Below are positions 6,836 through 21,159 of a DNA stretch of 64,000 bases, one piece after another (positions within the stretch are counted from its first letter, which is position 1; every line of letters starts with the position of its first letter). Below the pieces are notes generated by a model that saw only the letters and a list, made by a program, of their open reading frames with translations, was not told the DNA's origin and searched no databases. The position numbers were made by a program, and so were the translations under genes. Origin of the DNA: Candidatus Parcubacteria bacterium (GTDB taxonomy: Bacteria; Patescibacteriota; Microgenomatia; UBA12405); assembly GCA_023396915.1 (NCBI GenBank), contig JAEWUV010000007.1, forward strand, positions 146,077-210,076, in the 5' to 3' direction.

Positions 6836-7891
6836 CTATTCCTTATTATTAAAATAAACTAAATAATCTTCTATATCTTTTTTAAATTCTTTGTTAAATT
6901 TTAATCTAACAACACTTATTTTACCAATCCCTTCACATAAAATAGCATCCACTTCGTCTCCAATGACTTTCTTGTCTGTTTTTAAAAATTTCATATATAA
7001 GTCGATATTATCAACTGGAAACGTTTTAAAAGATATAAATTTTTTAATAAAAAGATGAATCCTTAAAAATTCATCTTTTAGTAAAATTCCTCTTTTCATT
7101 GAAATAAAATTAGCTAAATCTATCCCCATTAAAACAGCTAAACCATGAGGGATTTTATTTTTTGTATAGCCTTCTAATGCATGTCCAAAAGTATGACCAT
7201 AATTAAGTAATTTTCTTATATTTTTTTCTAATTCATCTTTCTCAACAATTTCCTTCTTTATAAGCAAACTCTTATAAACTACATCTTCAGTTACTTTACT
7301 ATTCTTTTCCAAATCAGAATAAAACACTCCTCCTTTAATTAATGCGTGTTTTATTATCTCTCCAATACCATTAATTGAATCGACTTCAGACAAAGTATTT
7401 AAAAAACTTATATTTATATATATTTCTATAGGAGGATGAAAAGAACCAACTTGATTTTTAAAACCGCCTATATTGATTCCAGATTTAGCCCCAATACAAC
7501 TATCCACCATAGAAAGAAGTGTAGTGGGAACAAAAACCCAATCAATCCCTCGTTTTATTATATGTGAAGTAAAAGATCCAATATCTTGAACTAAGCCACC
7601 TCCAATTACAACAACTTTATCTTGTTTTTGAATCCCGTTATCCAATAAAAAATAAACATACTTGTTAACTTCATTTAAGGTTTTATTTTTTTCAACCGCT
7701 TCAAAATAATTAACCGATTTAGCCAACGAAACTCCTAATTTCAAATTATCCTTATAAAGATTCCAAATATTTTTATCTATTAAAAAATGACAACGATATT
7801 TTTTAACCAACTCGTTGGTTAAATTATTTAAATTTTTAATAAAAATAACTTCATAATCTTTAATACTAGATTTTATTTTTATATTTCTCAT
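6836..7891 (-). CDS. 3-dehydroquinate-synthase-like sugar phosphate cyclase family protein
   Basis: VVVIGGGLVQDIGSF...PTTLLSMVDSCIGAKSGIN...GSFHPP...HGHTFGHALE aligns to AroB core motifs. Confidence 0.75.
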   Translation of the reverse strand: MRNIKIKSSIKDYEVIFIKNLNNLTNELVKKYRCHFLIDKNIWNLYKDNLKLGVSLAKSVNYFEAVEKNKTLNEVNKYVYFLLDNGIQKQDKVVVIGGGLVQDIGSFTSHIIKRGIDWVFVPTTLLSMVDSCIGAKSGINIGGFKNQVGSFHPPIEIYINISFLNTLSEVDSINGIGEIIKHALIKGGVFYSDLEKNSKVTEDVVYKSLLIKKEIVEKDELEKNIRKLLNYGHTFGHALEGYTKNKIPHGLAVLMGIDLANFISMKRGILLKDEFLRIHLFIKKFISFKTFPVDNIDLYMKFLKTDKKVIGDEVDAILCEGIGKISVVRLKFNKEFKKDIEDYLVYFNNKE

Positions 7892-8820
7892 TTTTTAATT
7901 AAATAATTTATAGCTTCATAAACCGCACCTACTGGAGATTTTTTTATTTCCAAAACATACGGAGGTGCATACACATTCGATTTTATAATATTACCATCAT
8001 TAGTGAAACTATAAGGATAGCTTAATAATCCCTTATTATTATCATTAGGAGAATCTCCAAAAGTAGCTAATTGATTATCTTTTATTTTTAATTTCTTAAC
8101 TAAATTTTTCATCATATACAATTTCCCATCAACAATCTTTCCATTAATTCTTAAGTTTCTACCCACATCAGCAAATGGTAAATTTCCCCAAGAAACACAT
8201 AAATCATAAGGGGTCAACTTTCTTCTCAACACATTAATGATTTTCTTTTGTTCATTAATATCTGACGGTAAGACAAAAGTAACCTTAACAGCTTCAGCAA
8301 AAACACAACCCTTAGAATTACAAGAAATCTTGTAACAAGTCTCTGGCATTAAATCCTTTGGAGGTTTATTTTTCAAAAATTCATTAAAAAAAATTTTTGA
8401 TTTTAGGTCTGGTTCAACCTTTAACTTCTTGTAAACATCAAACGTTTTTTTTAATAAAGATTTATCAAAACTATTAGAATATATTTTTTTAACAAACACT
8501 TTTTTAGGAGTAAAAGTTAATCTATTTAAAACTGCTCCTGTTCCGCCAGACCGCCAAACAGTAAAAGAACAGTCGTTCTTCATACAAAATATCAAACCCA
8601 ACTCTCTAAGTTTAATGTCTAAAGTGGTGTTTCTTCCTGATACAAAAGCAAAATCTATTCCACTCTGAAACACACGAAAAGCCAACTCAATCACATTATC
8701 TAGTGAATTATAAGTTTTATCATTCCTATCATACACTGTTCCATCATAATCAACCGCAATTAATTTTACACCTCCACACTTTACTTCTTCTAATTTTTGC
8801 CACACTAAACTATTTTTCAT
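7888..8820 (-). CDS. HAD-superfamily (IIB, Cof-like) phosphatase
   Basis: KLIAVDYDGTV (DxDGT motif I), FVSGR, FGDSPND (motif IV). Confidence 0.7.
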   Translation of the reverse strand: MKNSLVWQKLEEVKCGGVKLIAVDYDGTVYDRNDKTYNSLDNVIELAFRVFQSGIDFAFVSGRNTTLDIKLRELGLIFCMKNDCSFTVWRSGGTGAVLNRLTFTPKKVFVKKIYSNSFDKSLLKKTFDVYKKLKVEPDLKSKIFFNEFLKNKPPKDLMPETCYKISCNSKGCVFAEAVKVTFVLPSDINEQKKIINVLRRKLTPYDLCVSWGNLPFADVGRNLRINGKIVDGKLYMMKNLVKKLKIKDNQLATFGDSPNDNNKGLLSYPYSFTNDGNIIKSNVYAPPYVLEIKKSPVGAVYEAINYLIKK

Positions 8821-12415: not shown

Positions 12416-13648
12416 TTGCAAATGTTTAATTTTAAATATTACTTCAAAAAACAAGTTATCGATTTTCAAAAATATGGTTGGGCTGGAGTATTTACCAAAA
12501 TCAAAAATAGACTTATATACCCAATTTTAAAAATTAGGATAAAAAAAATTCTAAAAACAGCCAAAAACTATCATCGTAAATCCATACTCATCGTCAATGG
12601 TGCCGAAAAATCTGTTTCTGAAATTCACCGAGTAAAACATTTAGAAGACAAACTTAAAATATTAAACATTCCTTTTTTATCCTTAACTGATAATTTACTT
12701 AATCGTTTTACTCCAAGAAATATTAATAAATTTAATTTACTTTATATTCATCGATGCCCTTACAAAAATAACATTATTACATTAATTAACGATTTTAAAA
12801 ATCAACACAAACTGGTTATCTATGATATTGACGATCTAATTTTTGACAAAGACCAACTTAAAAAAATAAGTTTTCTTAAAAACATGAACTCACGATTTTG
12901 CCATCAATTTATTCAAAATACCGACGTTCATTTAAAAATTATGAAGAGGTGTGATTTTACAATCACACCAACTAAATTTCTTTCTCAATACATCAACAAA
13001 AAATATAAAATCCATACCAAAGTTTTACGTAACCACTTGGATCAAAGCAGTCTAGACAAAGGCCGAAAAATTTACCAAGCTCAAAAACAATCTCAAAATA
13101 AAAATATAACCATCGGCTATTTTTCCGGTACTAAAACTCATGACAAAGATTTTCAAATTATTCAACCTTCACTTCAAAAACTTTTGACTCAAAACCCAAA
13201 TTTAAATCTAAAAATAGTCGGTATCTTAGATATAAATTCAAGTCTTAACAAATTCAAAAATCAAATAATCACCCACAAAAAAGTTCCTTATAAAAGATTA
13301 ATGAACTTGTATAAAGGTGTTGATATCAATATCGCCCCTTTAGAAATAAATAATGATTTTTGTGAAAGCAAAAGTGAATTAAAATATTTCTTTGCCGCCG
13401 CTTGTGGTATTCCTACCGTCGCTTCTGCCACCGACGCTTTTAAACACGCTATCAAACAAGGAGAGAACGGTTACCTTTGTAAAAATTCATCCGATTGGTA
13501 TCAATATTTAAATCGACTTATTCAAAATAAAAAAGAAAGATTAGTTATGGGTAAAAAAGCCTTTATCCAAACCAAACAAGAATATTCACCCAAATATCAA
13601 GCTAAACAACTTAAAAAGATACTAGAAGAAGTAAAATTTTATGACTAA
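12416..13648 (+). CDS. GT-B fold glycosyltransferase (GT4-like C-terminal domain)
   Basis: C-terminal ESKSELKYFFAAACGIPTVASATDAFKHAIKQGENGYLC resembles the GT4 E-x7-E region. Divergent from rfbF with a 40-bp spacer. Confidence 0.6.
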   Translation: MQMFNFKYYFKKQVIDFQKYGWAGVFTKIKNRLIYPILKIRIKKILKTAKNYHRKSILIVNGAEKSVSEIHRVKHLEDKLKILNIPFLSLTDNLLNRFTPRNINKFNLLYIHRCPYKNNIITLINDFKNQHKLVIYDIDDLIFDKDQLKKISFLKNMNSRFCHQFIQNTDVHLKIMKRCDFTITPTKFLSQYINKKYKIHTKVLRNHLDQSSLDKGRKIYQAQKQSQNKNITIGYFSGTKTHDKDFQIIQPSLQKLLTQNPNLNLKIVGILDINSSLNKFKNQIITHKKVPYKRLMNLYKGVDINIAPLEINNDFCESKSELKYFFAAACGIPTVASATDAFKHAIKQGENGYLCKNSSDWYQYLNRLIQNKKERLVMGKKAFIQTKQEYSPKYQAKQLKKILEEVKFYD

Positions 13649-14627
13649 TCAAGTATACGGTGTCAGCTTTATTATTCCCACCTGGAACAAGAAAGATTTA
13701 ATTATAAAATGTATCCAGCTACTTGATAAACAACTGTCTATCGAACGTCCTGAAATCAAAAAAGAAATTATTGTGGTCGAAAACGGCTCTACTGATGGTA
13801 GTTTTGAGGCTTTATCAAAACTTAAAACTAAAACTCCTTTTAAAATCCTTGCTCAAAAAACTAATCTGGGTTTTGCCAAAGCTATTAATTTGGCCGTCAA
13901 AAAGGCTAAATATGACTACCTTTATTTTCTTAATAATGACATGGAAGTTCAAAATGGATTTTTCACAGAAATTACCAAAACAGGCAATAATCTATTATCA
14001 AAAAATATTAGCTTTTTTGGCATTGCTTCACAAATATTTTTCTTTAATCCAAAGGTAAAGCGGGTAGAATCCGGCAAAACCTGGACTCAGTTTAAAAATG
14101 GAAAATTATTAGTGGGGCATGAATTAAACCCCAAAAAACTTACTCAAATTTCACCAACTGCTTACTGTGGAGGGGGATCATCTTTGATTAATAAACAAAT
14201 ATTTAATCTCCTTGGTGGCTTAGATAGCAAAGTTTATATTCCTATGTACTGCGAAGATTTAGATTTAAGTTTTGTTGCCTGGAAAAAAGGTTACCCATCC
14301 TACTTTTGCCCCAATTCAAAAGTAATTCATCACCACCGCAGCAGTAGTAAACTTTTATCTATTAGCCCCGATTATTATATTCACAAAAATTATTTATCTT
14401 TTTGTCTTAAAAATTTTGACAGTCCAATATTATTATCCAAATTATTTTTATACTACCCACTTTATTTAATCTTTAAAAAAGATTATGGGAAATATTTAAT
14501 TGATAACCTAAAAAACCTAAAAAATATTAAACGTTCTAAAGATAAATTAAAAAAAATACCCAATAAATACAAAGATATTAAACTAATAAATTTCAAATTT
14601 TTTATTAAAACATATGAACAAACCTAG
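13641..14627 (+). CDS. family 2 glycosyltransferase
   Basis: VSFIIPTWNKKDLIIKCIQ...VVENGSTDGS. Confidence 0.75.
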   Translation: MTNQVYGVSFIIPTWNKKDLIIKCIQLLDKQLSIERPEIKKEIIVVENGSTDGSFEALSKLKTKTPFKILAQKTNLGFAKAINLAVKKAKYDYLYFLNNDMEVQNGFFTEITKTGNNLLSKNISFFGIASQIFFFNPKVKRVESGKTWTQFKNGKLLVGHELNPKKLTQISPTAYCGGGSSLINKQIFNLLGGLDSKVYIPMYCEDLDLSFVAWKKGYPSYFCPNSKVIHHHRSSSKLLSISPDYYIHKNYLSFCLKNFDSPILLSKLFLYYPLYLIFKKDYGKYLIDNLKNLKNIKRSKDKLKKIPNKYKDIKLINFKFFIKTYEQT

Positions 14628-14706
14628 TCTTCTTCTTGTCTCGGCCATTCCACCTCAACCCCAAACAAGTGGGGGAGCCAACAATCACGTCAAAACTATG
14701 ATATAA
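14614..14706 (+). pseudogene. 30-codon remnant of a GT4 glycosyltransferase 5' end (MNKPSLLLVSAIPPQPQTSGGANNHVKTMI*)
   Basis: ATG overlaps the GT2 stop. LLLVSAI..PQTSGG matches the N-terminus of the downstream truncated GT4 (16126-). Terminates after 30 codons. Confidence 0.6.
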
Positions 14707-14733
14707 CCATATCAAAACGATATGGTTTTTATT
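14706..14733 (+). terminator. rho-independent terminator hairpin (ACCATATC-AAAAC-GATATGGT + TTTTTATT)
   Basis: Perfect 8-bp inverted repeat with a 5-nt loop, followed by a T-run. Confidence 0.55.
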
Positions 14734-14753
14734 AATTTTTGATATGATTTTAT

Positions 14754-14811
14754 AAAAACTTGCGAAAACGTGCAATTTCTATATAAAAAAACTTGCGAAA
14801 ACGTGCAATTT
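14754..14811. repeat. two perfect 25-bp direct repeats (AAAAACTTGCGAAAACGTGCAATTT) with 33-bp period, 17 nt upstream of the ATPase start
   Basis: Copies at 14754-14778 and 14787-14811. Each contains a TTGC-N8-GCAA partial dyad. Confidence 0.8.
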
Positions 14812-14827
14812 TTACTAAAATTTTAAT

Positions 14828-16123
14828 ATGAAACGAGATATCACAAGTAAATTATTGGAATGGAAAAACTCAGAAAACCGTAAACCATTAATTTTAACCG
14901 GCGCCAGACAAGTTGGGAAAACCTGGATTTTAAAAGAATTTGGCAAGCAATACTATCAAAATACTGCGTACATCATGTTTGAAAAAAACGAAAACATGAA
15001 AAAATTATTTGACGGATCTCTGTCGCCCAAAGATTTATTACCTTTTCTTCAAGCAGAGACTAACATCTCAATAGACCCAAAAAATACATTGATAATTTTT
15101 GATGAAATCCAAGCCGTCCCCAATGCCATTACCTCTCTTAAGTTTTTCAACGAGGAAGCACCGGAATATTCAATTATTGCTGCCGGTTCCACGTTAGGAG
15201 TTACCTTACACAATAGTGGATCTTTTCCCGTTGGTAAGGTAAATTTTATGACTCTTTATCCTATGACGTTTTTGGAATTTTTAGATGCCAACAATGAAAA
15301 ACAATTAACAGATTTAATAAAAAATACAAAAGAGTTATCTTCGATAAATATATTTCACGAAAAATTAGATAAATATCTCAAACAATATTTTTTGATTGGC
15401 GGGATGCCTGAAGTTGTTAAAAAATATATTGAAACAAACAGTTTTGAAGAAGCTCGTACAATTCAAAAACAATTACTTGACTCTTACAACCAAGATTTTT
15501 CCAAATATACAACACCCATAGCTGCAACTAAACTTCAAATGGTTTGGAAATCAATTCCTTCTCAAATAACCAAAGAAAATCGTAAATTTATATATGGAGC
15601 AGTTAAAAATAGTGCCCGAGCCAGAGATTTCGAAACCACTATACAGTGGTTAGTTGACAGTTCATTAGTAAATAAAATTAATCGAGTTAGTCTACCTAAA
15701 CCACCATTAAAAAGTTACGAGGAATTTGAGATTTTTAAGTTATTTCTGCATGATATTGGTTTACTTGGAGCTATGGTTAACGCATCACCAAAATCAATCA
15801 TCAACAATAATAATATTTACACTGAATTTAAAGGAGCATTAGCAGAACAATTTGTTTGTCAGGAGTTAATAGCCTCCGGGATAGAAACATTCTATTGGTC
15901 AGCTAATGACTCAAGACAAGAAATAGATTTCTTGACAGAAAGAAATAATGAAGTTATTCCTATTGAAGTAAAATCAGGAAAAAATTTAACATCAGTTTCA
16001 TTTAATAGATTTATGAAGGCTAACCAGTCAAAATATGGTTATAAAATATCAAATAGGCCTTATATGAATAACAAAAAAATAATAAATTTACCATTATATT
16101 TAACCTCAACAATATCCCAATAA
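14828..16123 (+). CDS. AAA+ ATPase of the AAA_14/DUF4143 family (function unknown)
   Basis: Walker A TGARQVGKT, Walker B LIIFDEIQ, then a C-terminal DUF4143-like region. 431 aa. Confidence 0.7.
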   Translation: MKRDITSKLLEWKNSENRKPLILTGARQVGKTWILKEFGKQYYQNTAYIMFEKNENMKKLFDGSLSPKDLLPFLQAETNISIDPKNTLIIFDEIQAVPNAITSLKFFNEEAPEYSIIAAGSTLGVTLHNSGSFPVGKVNFMTLYPMTFLEFLDANNEKQLTDLIKNTKELSSINIFHEKLDKYLKQYFLIGGMPEVVKKYIETNSFEEARTIQKQLLDSYNQDFSKYTTPIAATKLQMVWKSIPSQITKENRKFIYGAVKNSARARDFETTIQWLVDSSLVNKINRVSLPKPPLKSYEEFEIFKLFLHDIGLLGAMVNASPKSIINNNNIYTEFKGALAEQFVCQELIASGIETFYWSANDSRQEIDFLTERNNEVIPIEVKSGKNLTSVSFNRFMKANQSKYGYKISNRPYMNNKKIINLPLYLTSTISQ

Positions 16124-16125
16124 AA

Positions 16126-17184
16126 AATCTTCTTCTAGTCTCTGCTATTTCACCAACCCCTCAAACCAGTGGGGGATCGGTAAGAATAAAAAACACACTC
16201 GAACAACTTTCAAAATATTACCACGTCGATTTTGTTACTTTTGACGAATCAAAAATTAAAACTCAATCAAAAAAAATAACTTCAAAAATCCCTTATTGGT
16301 TTTCACCTTGGTATAACCCAAAATTAATTTCTCAAATTCAAAAATTAACCTCCGAAAACAAATACGACATTATTCAAATCGAGTTTAGCCAATTACTTTA
16401 TTTAGCTAAATATTTACCCCAAAACACCCGAAAAATCTTCACTGCTCACGACATTTCCACTATTTCTTTTTATCGTCGTGTTTCAGAAGACAATCCATCA
16501 ATTTTAAAAAAAATAATCAGGCTTTTATTTTTTCTTCAAATTTATTTCTACGAAAAAAAATACCTACCAAAATTCGATACTATTATTACTGTTTCCCAAA
16601 AAGACCAACAAACACTACAAAAATGGCTACCAGACAAAAACATAATTTGTTTGGAAAACGGCATTGAAAAAATAAATTTTCTGTCTAAAAAACCATCAAA
16701 AATACTTAAACTTGGCTATATCGGATCCTTTAACCATACTCCAAACTTAAATGCTGTTAAATATTTTTTCGACAAAATCGCCCCGTTATTTAACAAAGAA
16801 AAAATTAAATATGAATTCTACTTAGCCGGAAACAATGATCCTCAATTCATTAAAAACAATTTCCCTAAGGCCATAAATTTAGGAAAAGTAAAATCAGTAA
16901 AGGATTTTTACAAAAAAATCGACTGTCTAATTACCCCGATTTTTGCTGGCTCCGGTTCTCGAATCAAGATTCTTGAAGCGTTAAGTTTTGGTATTCCTGT
17001 CGTTTCCAGCCCTGTTGGTGCCGAAGGAATAAATGTAAAATCCGACTACCTTCAAATAGCCAAAACTCCACAAGATTATATAAAATACCTTAAAAATCTC
17101 TCCAAAAGCAATCAACAACTCAAAAAAGAACTTAGCCCATTATTATGGACAAACATATTTAAAAAATACCCACAATTTATTTAA
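16126..17184 (+). pseudogene. GT4 glycosyltransferase lacking a start codon (5' end displaced by the ATPase insertion)
   Basis: Frame open from 16072 with no ATG/GTG before the TTG at 16651. Translation NLLLVSAISPTPQTSGGSVRIKNTLEQL... through to the C-terminal GT4 motif EALSFGIPVVSSPVGAEG. Confidence 0.6.
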
Positions 17185-17189
17185 CCATT

Positions 17190-18179
17190 ATGGTCAATAT
17201 TGCTTTTTCCTCCGATAATAATTACGCCTCATTTTTGTGTGCCTCCATTTTTTCTTTACTCAAAAATTCCAATAAACAAAACAAATATAATATTTATATT
17301 TTAGACGGAGGAATATCTAAAATAAACAAGACCAAAATTTTAAACAGCATCAAACAATTTAAAAACAAAAAAATAGAATTTATTAAAGTAAACCAAGAAA
17401 TTTTTAAAAATATTAAACAGTTTCTCTAACTTAATCAATCATCATATTACCGTTTATTATTACCACAGATTCTTCCAAAAATTAAAAAAATAATTTACTG
17501 TGACTGTGACCTTTTAATTTTAAAAGATATTTCAAATTTATATAACCAAAAACTTGGCAACAATTTGATTGGTTGCTGTCAAATATTTCACCCAAATTAC
17601 CAATCAATCTTACAAAGAATACATCCCCAAACAAAAATCAGACAGGCTATAAATTCGGGTGTAACCTTAATGAATTTAGATAAACTCAGACAAGGAAACT
17701 ATTCTAAAATTTTTATAAACTTTGTTAACAGAAATTCTCACAAACTTATTGCTGGTGACCAAGATGTTTTAAATATTGTTCTGTCTAACAAAATTAAGAT
17801 CATCAACCCAAAATGGAATACCACATCATATCTTTTTGTCGTTAATAATTATAAAAAATGTAATTTATCCAAAAAATTATTTAACACATGTACCCAAAAT
17901 CCCTCAATTGTTCATTTTGACGGTATAAAACCATGGATTAGCGGATCGTCTCATCCATACAAAAAAATATTTTTCAAATATATTAAAAAAACTGAATTTA
18001 AAGACTACAAAATAAAACCAAATCTTAAAAAATTTTTATTTAATCAAGTCTTTTATCTTGGTAATAAGATCGCTAATTTATTACCCCAAAAGATATATAA
18101 TCTAGTCGAAAAACAATATCTTAAAAATAATTTTTTAGAAAAACGTTACCAACAAATTATTAAAAATGAAACTAAGTAA
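17190..18179 (+). pseudogene. GT8-family glycosyltransferase interrupted by an in-frame TAA at 17427-17429
   Basis: ORFs 17190-17429 and 17565-18179 are in the same frame. Sequence after the stop reads LNQSSYYRLLLPQILPKIKKIIYCDCDLLIL (GT8 DxD region). Preceded by MVNIAFSSDNNYA (GT8 N-terminus). Confidence 0.6.
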
Positions 18180-18771
18180 GCCTCTCTTAAACTATTTAAA
18201 TTTTATTCTCGGCCAAATTAAAAGAGGTTTTGGTATTTTTTATACCAAAGATTTAATTCCCGAATATAAAAATTCAATCGGAAAACATACCTATGGTTTG
18301 CCAAAAATTTTTAAACTAGAACCAGACAGTAAATTAACCATCGGAAAATTTTGCTCTATTGCCAATGGTGTAAAAATATTCCTTGACGGAGAACACAATA
18401 CCAAAAATATTTCAACTTATCCTTTTGGATATTTTAATAATTTTAAAACTAAAAAACGTTACAAAACGCTATCAAAAGGTGAAGTAATCATTGGAAATGA
18501 TGTTTGGATTGGTTATGGGGTAACTATCCTTTCTGGAGTCAATATTGGCGACGGAGCCGTGATCGGTGCTTGTTCCCTTGTCACCAAAGATATTCCACCA
18601 TACAGTATCGTCGGTGGAATCCCGGCTAAATTAATTAAAAAAAGATTTAATCAACAAACTATAGACAAGTTAGAAAAAATAAAATGGTGGAATTGGAGTG
18701 ATAAAACAATCCAAAAAAATATAAAAATACTACAATCAAACAATCCAAAATTACTTAATAAACTTTACTAA
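18166..18771 (+). CDS. hexapeptide-repeat (left-handed beta-helix) acetyltransferase
   Basis: IGNDVWIGYGVTILSGVNIGDGAVIGACSLVTKDIPPYSIVGGIPAK. Confidence 0.8.
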   Translation: MKLSKPLLNYLNFILGQIKRGFGIFYTKDLIPEYKNSIGKHTYGLPKIFKLEPDSKLTIGKFCSIANGVKIFLDGEHNTKNISTYPFGYFNNFKTKKRYKTLSKGEVIIGNDVWIGYGVTILSGVNIGDGAVIGACSLVTKDIPPYSIVGGIPAKLIKKRFNQQTIDKLEKIKWWNWSDKTIQKNIKILQSNNPKLLNKLY

Positions 18772-19788: not shown

Positions 19789-20110
19789 TTTTAACTGAAA
19801 TCTTTCTAACTAATTTCTCTATCTGACTTTCCAAATTTCTTATCTTTATATTATTTTCAATAGTTATATAAGTCAAAACCATAAATGCCAAAATCATTCC
19901 CAAATCCATTACCCGAACAATAAATAATTCTTTTAACAAAGGCTCTAATAATTTTGGAAACAAAGCCATAAAAGCAAATACCCCAAAAATAATAATCCAA
20001 CCAATAAATAATTTCGTCGAAATGTTTTTCTTTTTCCAATGCAAAAACAACGAATAAGTCATAAACAAAGCAAAAGCCAACAAAATTATTTGTAAATAAA
20101 TAATACTCAT
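19778..20110 (-). CDS. small 3-4 TM membrane protein (DUF2304-like GT2 partner)
   Basis: 110 aa, hydrophobic helices, overlaps the GT2 start by 11 nt. Confidence 0.4.
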   Translation of the reverse strand: MSIIYLQIILLAFALFMTYSLFLHWKKKNISTKLFIGWIIIFGVFAFMALFPKLLEPLLKELFIVRVMDLGMILAFMVLTYITIENNIKIRNLESQIEKLVRKISVKSEK

Positions 20111-20742
20111 ATTGTCGCTTTAATATCACCAATAACTACCTGATTTTTAAAGTCATGATATAAACAATTAACAGTATTGTCTTTATCCTTAGTTTTCCCA
20201 GCTAAAATTTTAGATATATTTTTTGCCAATAATTTTTTAGACTTCATATCAGCAATTTCAACTGTATTTCCTTTTAACAAACATTCCACTATCATGTTTG
20301 ACGGTTTTAAAAACAAAGCCGCCATCGGATCCATCCACGGTCTTGTCATATATCTTTGTGAAGTTTTAACAATATAATCATCCCTATAACCAACAAAAGC
20401 TATCGTTCCATTTTTAACTAAAAATTTTCCTAAAACTTTCGCGCATCGACAACTTCTAGCAACTACAACCGACCCTCTCAAATCTATCTTGTTCAACCCA
20501 TCATCTATTAATACTTTATCATCATATCCTGTAATCAAATTATCATAACCATGACCATTCAGAAAAAGCAAACTATGTTTATGTTTTTTATAATAACTTA
20601 ATAAATTATTCCTATTAGCCTTCTTCGACGACAAATCAGTCACGTTAATACCTCTTTTATAAGCTTCGTCTATTACCGACTTCGACCAATAATATAAATA
20701 ATTAGTTCCATAGTCGTGATTTGGTCGGGTTACTAACATCAT
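20107..20742 (-). CDS. hypothetical protein; candidate caspase-like (clan CD) fold
   Basis: Hydrophobic strand + HG (SLLFLNGHG) and, ~44 aa later, hydrophobic strand + small-Cys (VVVARSC). No other recognisable motifs. Confidence 0.25.
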   Translation of the reverse strand: MMLVTRPNHDYGTNYLYYWSKSVIDEAYKRGINVTDLSSKKANRNNLLSYYKKHKHSLLFLNGHGYDNLITGYDDKVLIDDGLNKIDLRGSVVVARSCRCAKVLGKFLVKNGTIAFVGYRDDYIVKTSQRYMTRPWMDPMAALFLKPSNMIVECLLKGNTVEIADMKSKKLLAKNISKILAGKTKDKDNTVNCLYHDFKNQVVIGDIKATI

Positions 20743-20969
20743 AAAGCATTATTCAAGGCTTCATAAAACTTTCCATTAGTTAAATCCGTCATAAATTCAT
20801 TTTGAATTTCAACCATCTTTAAACCCGCTTCAGTTTCATTTTCAATTTCTTTAGTAATAGATTCTTTATTAAAAGAACCATTTCCTCCAATAGTTATCAT
20901 CCAATCGTCATCATAACTCTCAACTTTAGCTAAGACTATCTTTTTTAAATCTGAATCAATTTTTTTCAT
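20739..20969 (-). CDS. hypothetical small protein (76 aa)
   Basis: Translationally coupled (4-nt overlap) within the glycosylation operon. No recognisable motif. Confidence 0.35.
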   Translation of the reverse strand: MKKIDSDLKKIVLAKVESYDDDWMITIGGNGSFNKESITKEIENETEAGLKMVEIQNEFMTDLTNGKFYEALNNAL

Positions 20970-21159
20970 CTTTAACTAAATAATTTAATTTATTTAATAT
21001 TTCCAAACCTTTTTTACCAAGTAAAGTATTGTTATCCACCTCAATTTTTAATACATTCCAAGAAATGGGTTCATCATCAATAACCACAGCTACTTCACTT
21101 CTAACCGGTAATGGTAAATTAGCGTAAGTTCGGTAAAACCTTGTCTTCAAATCAACCAT
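20956..21159 (-). CDS. hypothetical small protein (67 aa)
   Basis: 14-nt overlap with the downstream gene. No recognisable motif. Confidence 0.3.
   Translation of the reverse strand: MVDLKTRFYRTYANLPLPVRSEVAVVIDDEPISWNVLKIEVDNNTLLGKKGLEILNKLNYLVKDEKN

Follow-up and report, generated by a model that had tools for sequence, protein, structure and literature searches.

How can one glycosyltransferase gene appear to begin twice? The question arises on contig JAEWUV010000007.1, from a Candidatus Parcubacteria bacterium (NCBI GenBank assembly GCA_023396915.1). We analysed 64,000 nucleotides (nt) of this contig (positions 146,077 to 210,076 of the forward strand). This stretch is called the window throughout, and coordinates without a locus name refer to it. 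Behind a family 2 glycosyltransferase (GT2) gene lies an open reading frame (ORF) of 30 codons that resembles the start of a family 4 glycosyltransferase (GT4). Further on, after an ATPase gene, comes a much longer GT4 frame without a recognisable start codon. A preliminary description, made from the sequence alone, took this for a GT4 gene split and inactivated by an insertion. On re-examination, all the sequence features that it described (ORFs, repeats, hairpin and ATPase) exist at or near the positions it gave. Its interpretation stood in part. The intervening segment is extra DNA, and the downstream gene has no canonical start. There is no split gene, since the downstream GT4 is whole from its first codon onwards. 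We consider it probable that a cassette with an ATPase of the PDC-S01 type, a candidate defence gene, reached a cargo hotspot by recombination. A GT4 stub and a complete, start-less GT4 gene now lie on either side of it.

A complete GT4 gene with a noncanonical start codon

As noted before and reproduced here, the downstream GT4 frame opens at 16072 and offers no ATG, GTG or TTG until the TTG at 16651. We read the frame from the ATA at 16120. The translation then spans positions 2-167 of 170 in the Pfam profile Glyco_transf_4 and positions 3-139 of 142 in Glyco_trans_1_4; both domains of this GT-B-fold enzyme are complete. The 57 orthologs, 355-369 amino acids (aa) long, share 59-74% identity with it over 98-100% of the query. 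Fourteen orthologs begin with MKN, MKK or MQK followed by an (L/I)LL motif (for example P0005 and P0008, with MKNLLLISAIPP). The Met of these orthologs aligns exactly with the ATA at 16120, where the window reads I-KNLLLVSAISP, and the alignment starts at residue 1 of the orthologs that begin MKNLLL. At the DNA level, two relatives (L002 and L034) have ATG AAA AAT CTT CT and the window has ATA AAA AAT CTT CT. The start codon is ATG in all 57 orthologs except one, which has GTG. A canonical start is absent from the orthologous position of the window gene, which holds ATA.

The remainder of the gene is well preserved. Its 354-codon frame has no stop codon and no frameshift. At 121 near-invariant columns there are six deviations, all of them conservative (A>S, E>Q, L>F and three cases of I>V). 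Identity to the related locus L030 is 73% for GT4, which is not below that of the neighbouring GT1 (60%) and GT2 (69%). Hence, there is no sign of long-term decay in GT4. We conclude that the downstream GT4 is full length and that its sole defect is the noncanonical ATA start. Gene callers shrink the start-less gene to a fragment of 177 aa, likely an annotation error that is corrected here.

Two diverged GT4 5' ends

The ATG of the 30-codon ORF sits 14 nt within the end of GT2. The ORF is coupled to GT2 and terminates early, in agreement with the preliminary description. In relatives, the ATG of the intact, full-length GT4 overlaps the end of GT2 in the same way. Hence, the short ORF is a stub, the remnant of a resident GT4. 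Its GT4 similarity ends at about 14679-14685, after some 22-24 codons. The stub repeats codons 4-20 of the downstream GT4 and supplies no missing codons.

The two 5' ends share a direct repeat of 49 nt with a spacing of exactly 1500 nt. The copies are 80% identical (10 of 49 bases differ), which bears out the earlier figure of about 80% over about 50 bp. This identity is not above the background for the GT4 family. Between the LLL codons and GGA-GCC, the two ends have 39 of 51 bases in common, and the average for orthologs taken from different genomes is 39.4 (range 34-46). With 42 of 51 bases each, the GT4 genes of L004 and L026 are nearer to the stub than is the downstream copy in the window. 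Nine codons differ between the copies, six by synonymous and three by nonsynonymous changes. Both haplotypes, IPPQPQ and ISPTPQ, are found in intact GT4 orthologs. Such divergence, equal to that between orthologs from different genomes and largely synonymous, shows that the copies did not arise by target-site duplication and do not make up one gene between them. As judged from these differences, the two copies diverged while each belonged to a working gene, and a fresh or target-site duplication is ruled out.

Two other identities for the stub region were considered and rejected. By eye, the DNA beyond 14680 resembled GT4 codons 30-45, which would extend the stub into the hairpin that follows it. 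Alignments with 13 GT4 genes gave z-scores of at most 1.0 against shuffled sequences. The 30-codon ORF could also have been a conserved leader peptide with an attenuator. In relatives, GT2 is followed by a full-length GT4 or by AbiE genes, no conserved short ORF with a hairpin was found there, and that combination occurs only in the same strain.

The heptamer CAACAAT occurs close to either end of the extra segment: once where the stub ends (14679-14685) and once in the 3' end of the ATPase gene, 7 nt before the ATA (16107-16113). The pair may be due to chance or may represent microhomology.

A cargo site between GT2 and GT4

The preliminary description had proposed a comparison with related genomes for an intact GT4 at this site. 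Such genes were found. GT2 runs directly into a full, overlapping GT4 in nine loci with seven distinct sequences (L004, L018, L019, L020/L025, L022, L027, L030, L033 and L036), and nothing lies between the two genes. The GT2 of the window is 69-80% identical to the GT2 directly before GT4 in L004, L019, L020, L022, L027, L030, L033 and L036. In L030 and L033, the gene order is GT1-GT2-GT4-GT8-Hexapep-(GT-D)-GT2(-)-DUF2304(-), where (-) marks the minus strand; this is the order of the window minus the extra segment. Hence, the segment of about 1.4 kb with the ATPase gene is extra DNA relative to these genomes, in line with the preliminary description.

Other relatives carry different genes at the same place. 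One AbiEi/AbiEii pair occupies the GT2-GT4 site in L034 (4741-6004) and in L035 (2022-3319), and three such pairs occupy it in L002 (144-4536). In these loci, GT4 has the short MKNLLL start and its ATG forms an ATGA overlap with the stop codon of the last AbiEii. Elsewhere, GT4 directly follows a divergent NTP-transferase gene (L005, L017, L023 and L031/L032) or other glycan genes (L003, L006 and L021). Since the site can be empty, hold one or three AbiE pairs or hold PDC-S01, it is a recurrent cargo site and its cargo is of the defence or toxin-antitoxin kind. The GT4 homologs carry the label Candidatus Shapirobacteria, which places the window in a bacterium of the candidate phyla radiation (CPR). 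We conclude that the GT2-GT4 boundary is a cargo hotspot in the surface-glycan operon of Candidatus Shapirobacteria-like bacteria.

The site resembles the defence islands and integration hotspots between conserved flanking genes that are known from many bacteria, in that one syntenic position holds differing defence or toxin-antitoxin cargo; in most relatives it is empty. It has no dedicated recombinase. The 'PDC' candidates of PADLOC were discovered through their embedding in such islands or hotspot regions. The site in the window differs in that it lies inside a glycan operon, between overlapping genes, so that its occupation disturbs the operon. It also differs in its CPR host and in that only three occupied lineages have been seen. 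It provides a concrete CPR example of a cargo hotspot, with AbiE or PDC-S01 cassettes at one site of a surface-glycan operon.

The ATPase and its upstream repeats

The ATPase matches the Pfam families AAA_14 (4.8e-28, residues 17-152) and DUF4143 (1.5e-35, residues 222-384). Residues 1-429 align with positions 3-432 of 439 in the PADLOC profile PDLC04786, which represents PDC-S01 (E 3.1e-177). A Walker A motif (GARQVGKT), a Walker B motif (IIFDEIQ) and an EIDF...IEVK motif can be read directly in the translation. DUF4143 is among the listed PD-(D/E)XK families (PMC3424549). PDC-S01 is a very common, unvalidated single-gene candidate in which an ATPase is fused to a PD-(D/E)XK domain, and it has moved several times between domains of life (PMC12988326). 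The window ATPase shares with PDC-S01 (COG1373, 'predicted AAA+ ATPase') the two-domain architecture, a match to the full length of the hidden Markov model, and the Walker and D...ExK motifs. By these resemblances, it is a candidate defence gene of the PDC-S01 type. Searches of solved structures and of NCBIfam gave no match.

The closest homologs, in L016 (82% identity), L013/L014 (80%) and L015 (71%), stand in unrelated contexts. Homologs with 63-66% identity include proteins with the source names Elusimicrobiota, Prevotellaceae and Bacteroidia. The family therefore passes between lineages, consistent with the earlier remark that it is often associated with mobile or variable regions. We also looked for a phage vehicle. 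No relative of the ATPase was found in viral contigs; nine motif matches there were isolated, attributable to chance and without an ATPase nearby.

The hairpin, the tandem repeats and the ATPase gene that had been reported between the two GT4 copies are all present. The tandem repeats (14751-14781 and 14784-14814) have a period of 33 nt. For their 17-nt core, CTTGCGAAAACGTGCAA, chance would give 0.16 occurrences in the window; there are two. Both repeats are kept in sequence and in distance to the ATPase ATG in L013 (5792-5853), L014 and L016 (~260-320). Upstream of the homologs with 63-71% identity (L015, L048 and L050) there are arrays of one to four TGCRAAAAYGTGCAATTT repeats, about 33-37 nt apart. 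Since the repeats are conserved with the ATPase gene in other genomes, a conserved module runs from about 14751 to the ATPase stop codon. The second repeat provides the -35 element (TTGCGA) of a promoter-like sequence (14793-14821), which continues with a 17-nt spacer and a -10 element TAAAAT that ends 7 nt before the ATG; in the arrays, too, the gene-proximal repeat overlaps a promoter-like -35. By their sequence and position, the TGCRAAAAYGTGCAATTT arrays look like a conserved operator array of the PDC-S01 family. The papers on PDC-S01 consulted here do not mention such an upstream direct-repeat array. The conserved array may help to study the control of this common, uncharacterised candidate.

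The 80%-identical PDC-S01 module of L013 (5870-8270), on another CPR contig, is also inside a glycosyltransferase cluster. It is just upstream of a disrupted GT2 gene, now in two frames (7361-7708 and 7785-8132), and an SNase-like gene is on the other side of the module. A search for a duplicated fragment of the flanking genes around the L013 module gave weak 25-nt matches only. In the window, a run of seven A (16073-16079) occurs within the final 50 nt of the ATPase coding sequence, a part that the open GT4 frame also covers; this run is not conserved in L013 or L016. Slippage at this run could in principle fuse the ATPase to GT4.

Junctions of the extra segment

At the right junction, similarity of the ATPase gene to L013 and L016 reaches the base before the ATA. 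Similarity of GT4 to L002 and L034 begins directly after it. The ATPase stop codon TAA (16121-16123) overlaps the ATA, giving ATAA; the relatives L002 and L034 have an ATGA overlap. Four-base overlaps of this kind are found in at least nine gene pairs of the window. The simplest reading is that an ancestral ATGA underwent a G to A change, which was silent for the ATPase (TGA to TAA) and destroyed the start of GT4. Alternatively, the G may have been lost as the joint formed. No terminator-like site is present between the ATPase and GT4. In Escherichia coli (E. coli), initiation at AUA reaches 1-2% of that at AUG (bioRxiv 10.1101/063800).

On the left, the stub is followed by a hairpin (14705-14727) of nine base pairs, three of them G-C, with a 5-nt loop and a T-tract, TTTATTAATT. 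Its folding energy is -15.2 kcal/mol (z -4.7), and it is one of only two terminator-like sites in 6.6 kb. Judged by the predicted fold, the stem-loop and T-run have the form of an intrinsic terminator. The hairpin lies within a 65-nt stretch (14686-14750). We considered whether it belongs to the ATPase module and rejected this; it has no significant similarity to the upstream regions in L013 and L016 and no second copy in the window.

Proposed recombination and its alternatives

How might this arrangement have come about? A cassette with its own repeat-bearing promoter would have entered through recombination between the resident locus and a diverged counterpart, and not by transposition. The same event would have brought in a complete GT4 allele that lay immediately downstream of the ATPase. 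The right join would be homologous and the left join illegitimate, about 22-24 codons into the resident GT4. The stub, still coupled to GT2, would now run into the terminator-like hairpin. Transcription from the GT1-GT2 promoter probably stops there. The ATPase promoter probably drives transcription of GT4 and GT8, and GT4 would be translated only through weak initiation or re-initiation at the ATA after the ATPase stop codon.

Homology-facilitated illegitimate recombination, and allelic replacement at capsule and O-antigen loci, are known from naturally transformable bacteria. We know of no experimental study of recombination in Shapirobacteria. The window shares with those cases a one-sided homology anchor, an illegitimate join on the other side and a truncated resident gene beside the incoming allele. 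It is also a variable surface-polysaccharide locus. Here, the anatomy points to the process, and mechanism and donor are putative. The locus is a new instance of known processes, namely cargo exchange at a hotspot, recombination at a surface-polysaccharide locus and pseudogene formation by point mutation, and involves no new principle. Among the by-products, the hotspot and the repeat array conserved in front of PDC-S01 genes are the most useful.

Several observations weigh against this account. The evidence for the recombination route is anatomical. The ATPase was found beside GT4 in none of about 24 related loci, and this includes the donor-like arrangement with PDC-S01 directly upstream of GT4. 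No mosaic breakpoint appeared within GT4 when sliding-window identity to 15 orthologs was examined. The 65-nt stretch with the hairpin had no match to GT4 genes, to the upstream regions of other ATPase modules or to other parts of the window. As to the candidate defence role, a published E. coli test included one PDC-S01 representative; four candidates protected, and it was not one of them. As to the start codon, the 1-2% figure for AUA is that of E. coli; initiation in CPR bacteria, or re-initiation after an overlapping stop codon, may differ. A GT4 still expressed from the ATA would fit the intact 354-codon frame equally well.

This last point leads to the likeliest of the alternatives, although we regard it as doubtful. 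The anatomy would be the same and GT4 would be functional, translated by termination and re-initiation at the ATA (or at the in-frame ATT, ATA or ATC just upstream) and coupled to the ATPase, so that a glycan step would come under the promoter of a defence gene. The frame is indeed intact and its substitutions conservative. The geometry of the four-base overlap is that of the ATGA overlaps across the window and in L002 and L034, and there is no terminator-like site from the ATPase to GT4. Bacterial code table 11 accepts ATA as a rare initiator, and initiation at AUA can be measured in E. coli. Set against this are the low level of that initiation and the start codons of the 57 orthologs, ATG in all save the one with GTG. 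In addition, a nonsense codon in the adjacent GT8 gene of the same operon suggests that this branch of the pathway is no longer under selection. A further step would be to see the GT2-GT4 junction as a dedicated exchange site for defence cassettes in Candidatus Shapirobacteria-like bacteria. The ATAA overlap and the repeat-controlled promoter would make translation of the downstream glycosyltransferases depend on expression of the defence gene, and the TGCRAAAAYGTGCAATTT array would serve a self-sensing ATPase-nuclease as its autoregulatory operator. We hold this to be unlikely. If true, it would tie the synthesis of the surface glycan, a phage receptor, to the state of the defence gene.

The remaining alternatives concern how the two GT4 ends arose. 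Insertion of a mobile ATPase element into a single GT4, with duplication of a target of about 50 bp, would leave a split head and a start-less body. Like insertion sequences and transposons, the extra DNA is flanked by a direct repeat; the segment is missing at the same site in relatives, and the downstream ORF has no ATG, GTG or TTG before 16651. However, the first codon of that ORF, read from 16120, corresponds to codon 1 of the orthologs, and the whole N-terminal domain is included. The repeats differ at 10 of 49 positions, mostly synonymously, and are no closer to each other than to the GT4 genes of other genomes. They lie inside the coding sequences of two alleles and not at the ends of an element. 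The segment has no transposase, no integrase and no convincing terminal inverted repeats, and the ATPase is its only family-matched ORF. We consider such an insertion very unlikely. Just as unlikely is a pair of ancestral tandem GT4 paralogs after GT2, the first of which was replaced by the ATPase module from codon 24 to the start of the second. This would account for two diverged 5' ends and a complete second copy, and both copies have Thr in QTSGG, where orthologs mostly have Asn. Yet tandem GT4 pairs occur in 0 of about 24 related loci, and QTSGG is also found in the unrelated orthologs L026, P0050 and P0051, which makes it unreliable as a shared derived character. An artefact is almost certainly not the answer. 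The sequence is of the metagenome type, a conserved motif in both copies could mislead an assembler into a mis-joined repeat, and base errors could give the ATA and the GT8 stop codon. However, the arrangement recurs on 16-17 contigs from separate assemblies, up to 0.9 Mb in length. The ATPase sequence is identical on 16 of them and the GT2 sequence on 17, one contig equals the window over 21 kb without differences, and the truncated 169-aa product of GT8 is present on 10 contigs. Presence or absence variation of the ATPase module within the population was not found: all 17 contigs with the exact GT2 share the arrangement. This points to its fixation in the population.

Damage to the distal operon

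The GT8 gene next to GT4 has a nonsense mutation at codon 80, a single-base change of CAA to TAA. Six orthologs (326-332 aa) read FLQLNQS at this point, where the window reads FL-stop-LNQS. The stop separates two matches to the Pfam GT8 profile, at profile positions 1-70 and 86-249. Thus, two adjacent genes, GT4 and GT8, each have one disabling transition in a frame that is otherwise well kept. The nonsense codon in GT8 indicates that the branch of the pathway served by GT4 and GT8 has probably disappeared or been strongly reduced. Probably, the distal operon is in decay, and both genes are on the way to being lost or are at best weakly expressed.

Pseudogenes caused by start loss or nonsense mutation in glycan loci arise through the same single-base changes as seen here in neighbouring glycosyltransferase genes (ATG>ATA and CAA>TAA). 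The GT4 of the window differs from ordinary start-loss pseudogenes in that its ATA lies in a stop/start overlap that might permit re-initiation, so that it could be down-tuned rather than dead. The two single-base defects suggest a recent loss of a glycan branch in this population. This may bear on attachment of phages or to hosts.

Other features of the locus

The glycan-synthesis cluster comprises, in order, an epimerase(-), an NTP-transferase(-), GT1, GT2, the ATPase/GT4 segment, GT8, a hexapeptide acyltransferase, a second GT2(-) and DUF2304(-). Coordinates of the features in and beside the segment are collected in Table 1.

Table 1. Features at the GT2-GT4 site, in window coordinates
Feature	Position	Strand	Evidence
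GT2 glycosyltransferase, conserved left flank of the cargo site	13641..14627	+	Pfam Glycos_transf_2, E 2e-19
30-codon ORF, stub of the former resident GT4 allele	14614..14706	+	ATG overlaps GT2 end; MNKPSLLLVSAIPPQPQTSGGA matches ortholog N-termini
49-nt direct repeat, upstream copy (GT4 codons LLLVSAIPPQPQTSGG)	14628..14676	+	42/51 vs L004, L026; 39/51 vs downstream copy
Terminator-like hairpin and T-tract	14705..14737	+	Folding energy, z-score; unique in window
Two tandem operator-like repeats, left end of ATPase module	14751..14814	+	Conserved in L013, L014, L016
AAA_14 ATPase with DUF4143 domain, 431 aa	14828..16123	+	Pfam, PADLOC PDC-S01
GT4 gene, 354 codons, ATA at start position (16120-16122)	16120..17184	+	Domains, 57 orthologs
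49-nt direct repeat, downstream copy within complete GT4	16128..16176	+	Sequence comparison
GT8 glycosyltransferase gene, in-frame TAA at 17427-17429	17190..18179	+	Pfam on both sides of stop; orthologs

The G+C content of the window is about 25-40%. The GC skew is negative in each 1-kb interval of the 64 kb, irrespective of gene strand. A tRNA scan and an Rfam scan (gathering score) of the whole window returned no tRNA gene and no match, respectively.

Three ORFs on the minus strand (211, 76 and 67 aa) are located at 20107-21159, between DUF2304 and a GT2 of 223 aa, and have no Pfam or PADLOC match. DUF2304 and this GT2 adjoin directly in L031 and L033; the three ORFs separate them in the window. 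They appear to make up another strain-specific insertion, the second in this locus. A GT-D gene of 303 aa between the hexapeptide transferase and GT2(-) in L030 and L033 (8579-9490 in each) is absent from the window, where the corresponding junction is at 18751/18771. The order of the window at this junction agrees with that of L031, and the glycan locus is mosaic.

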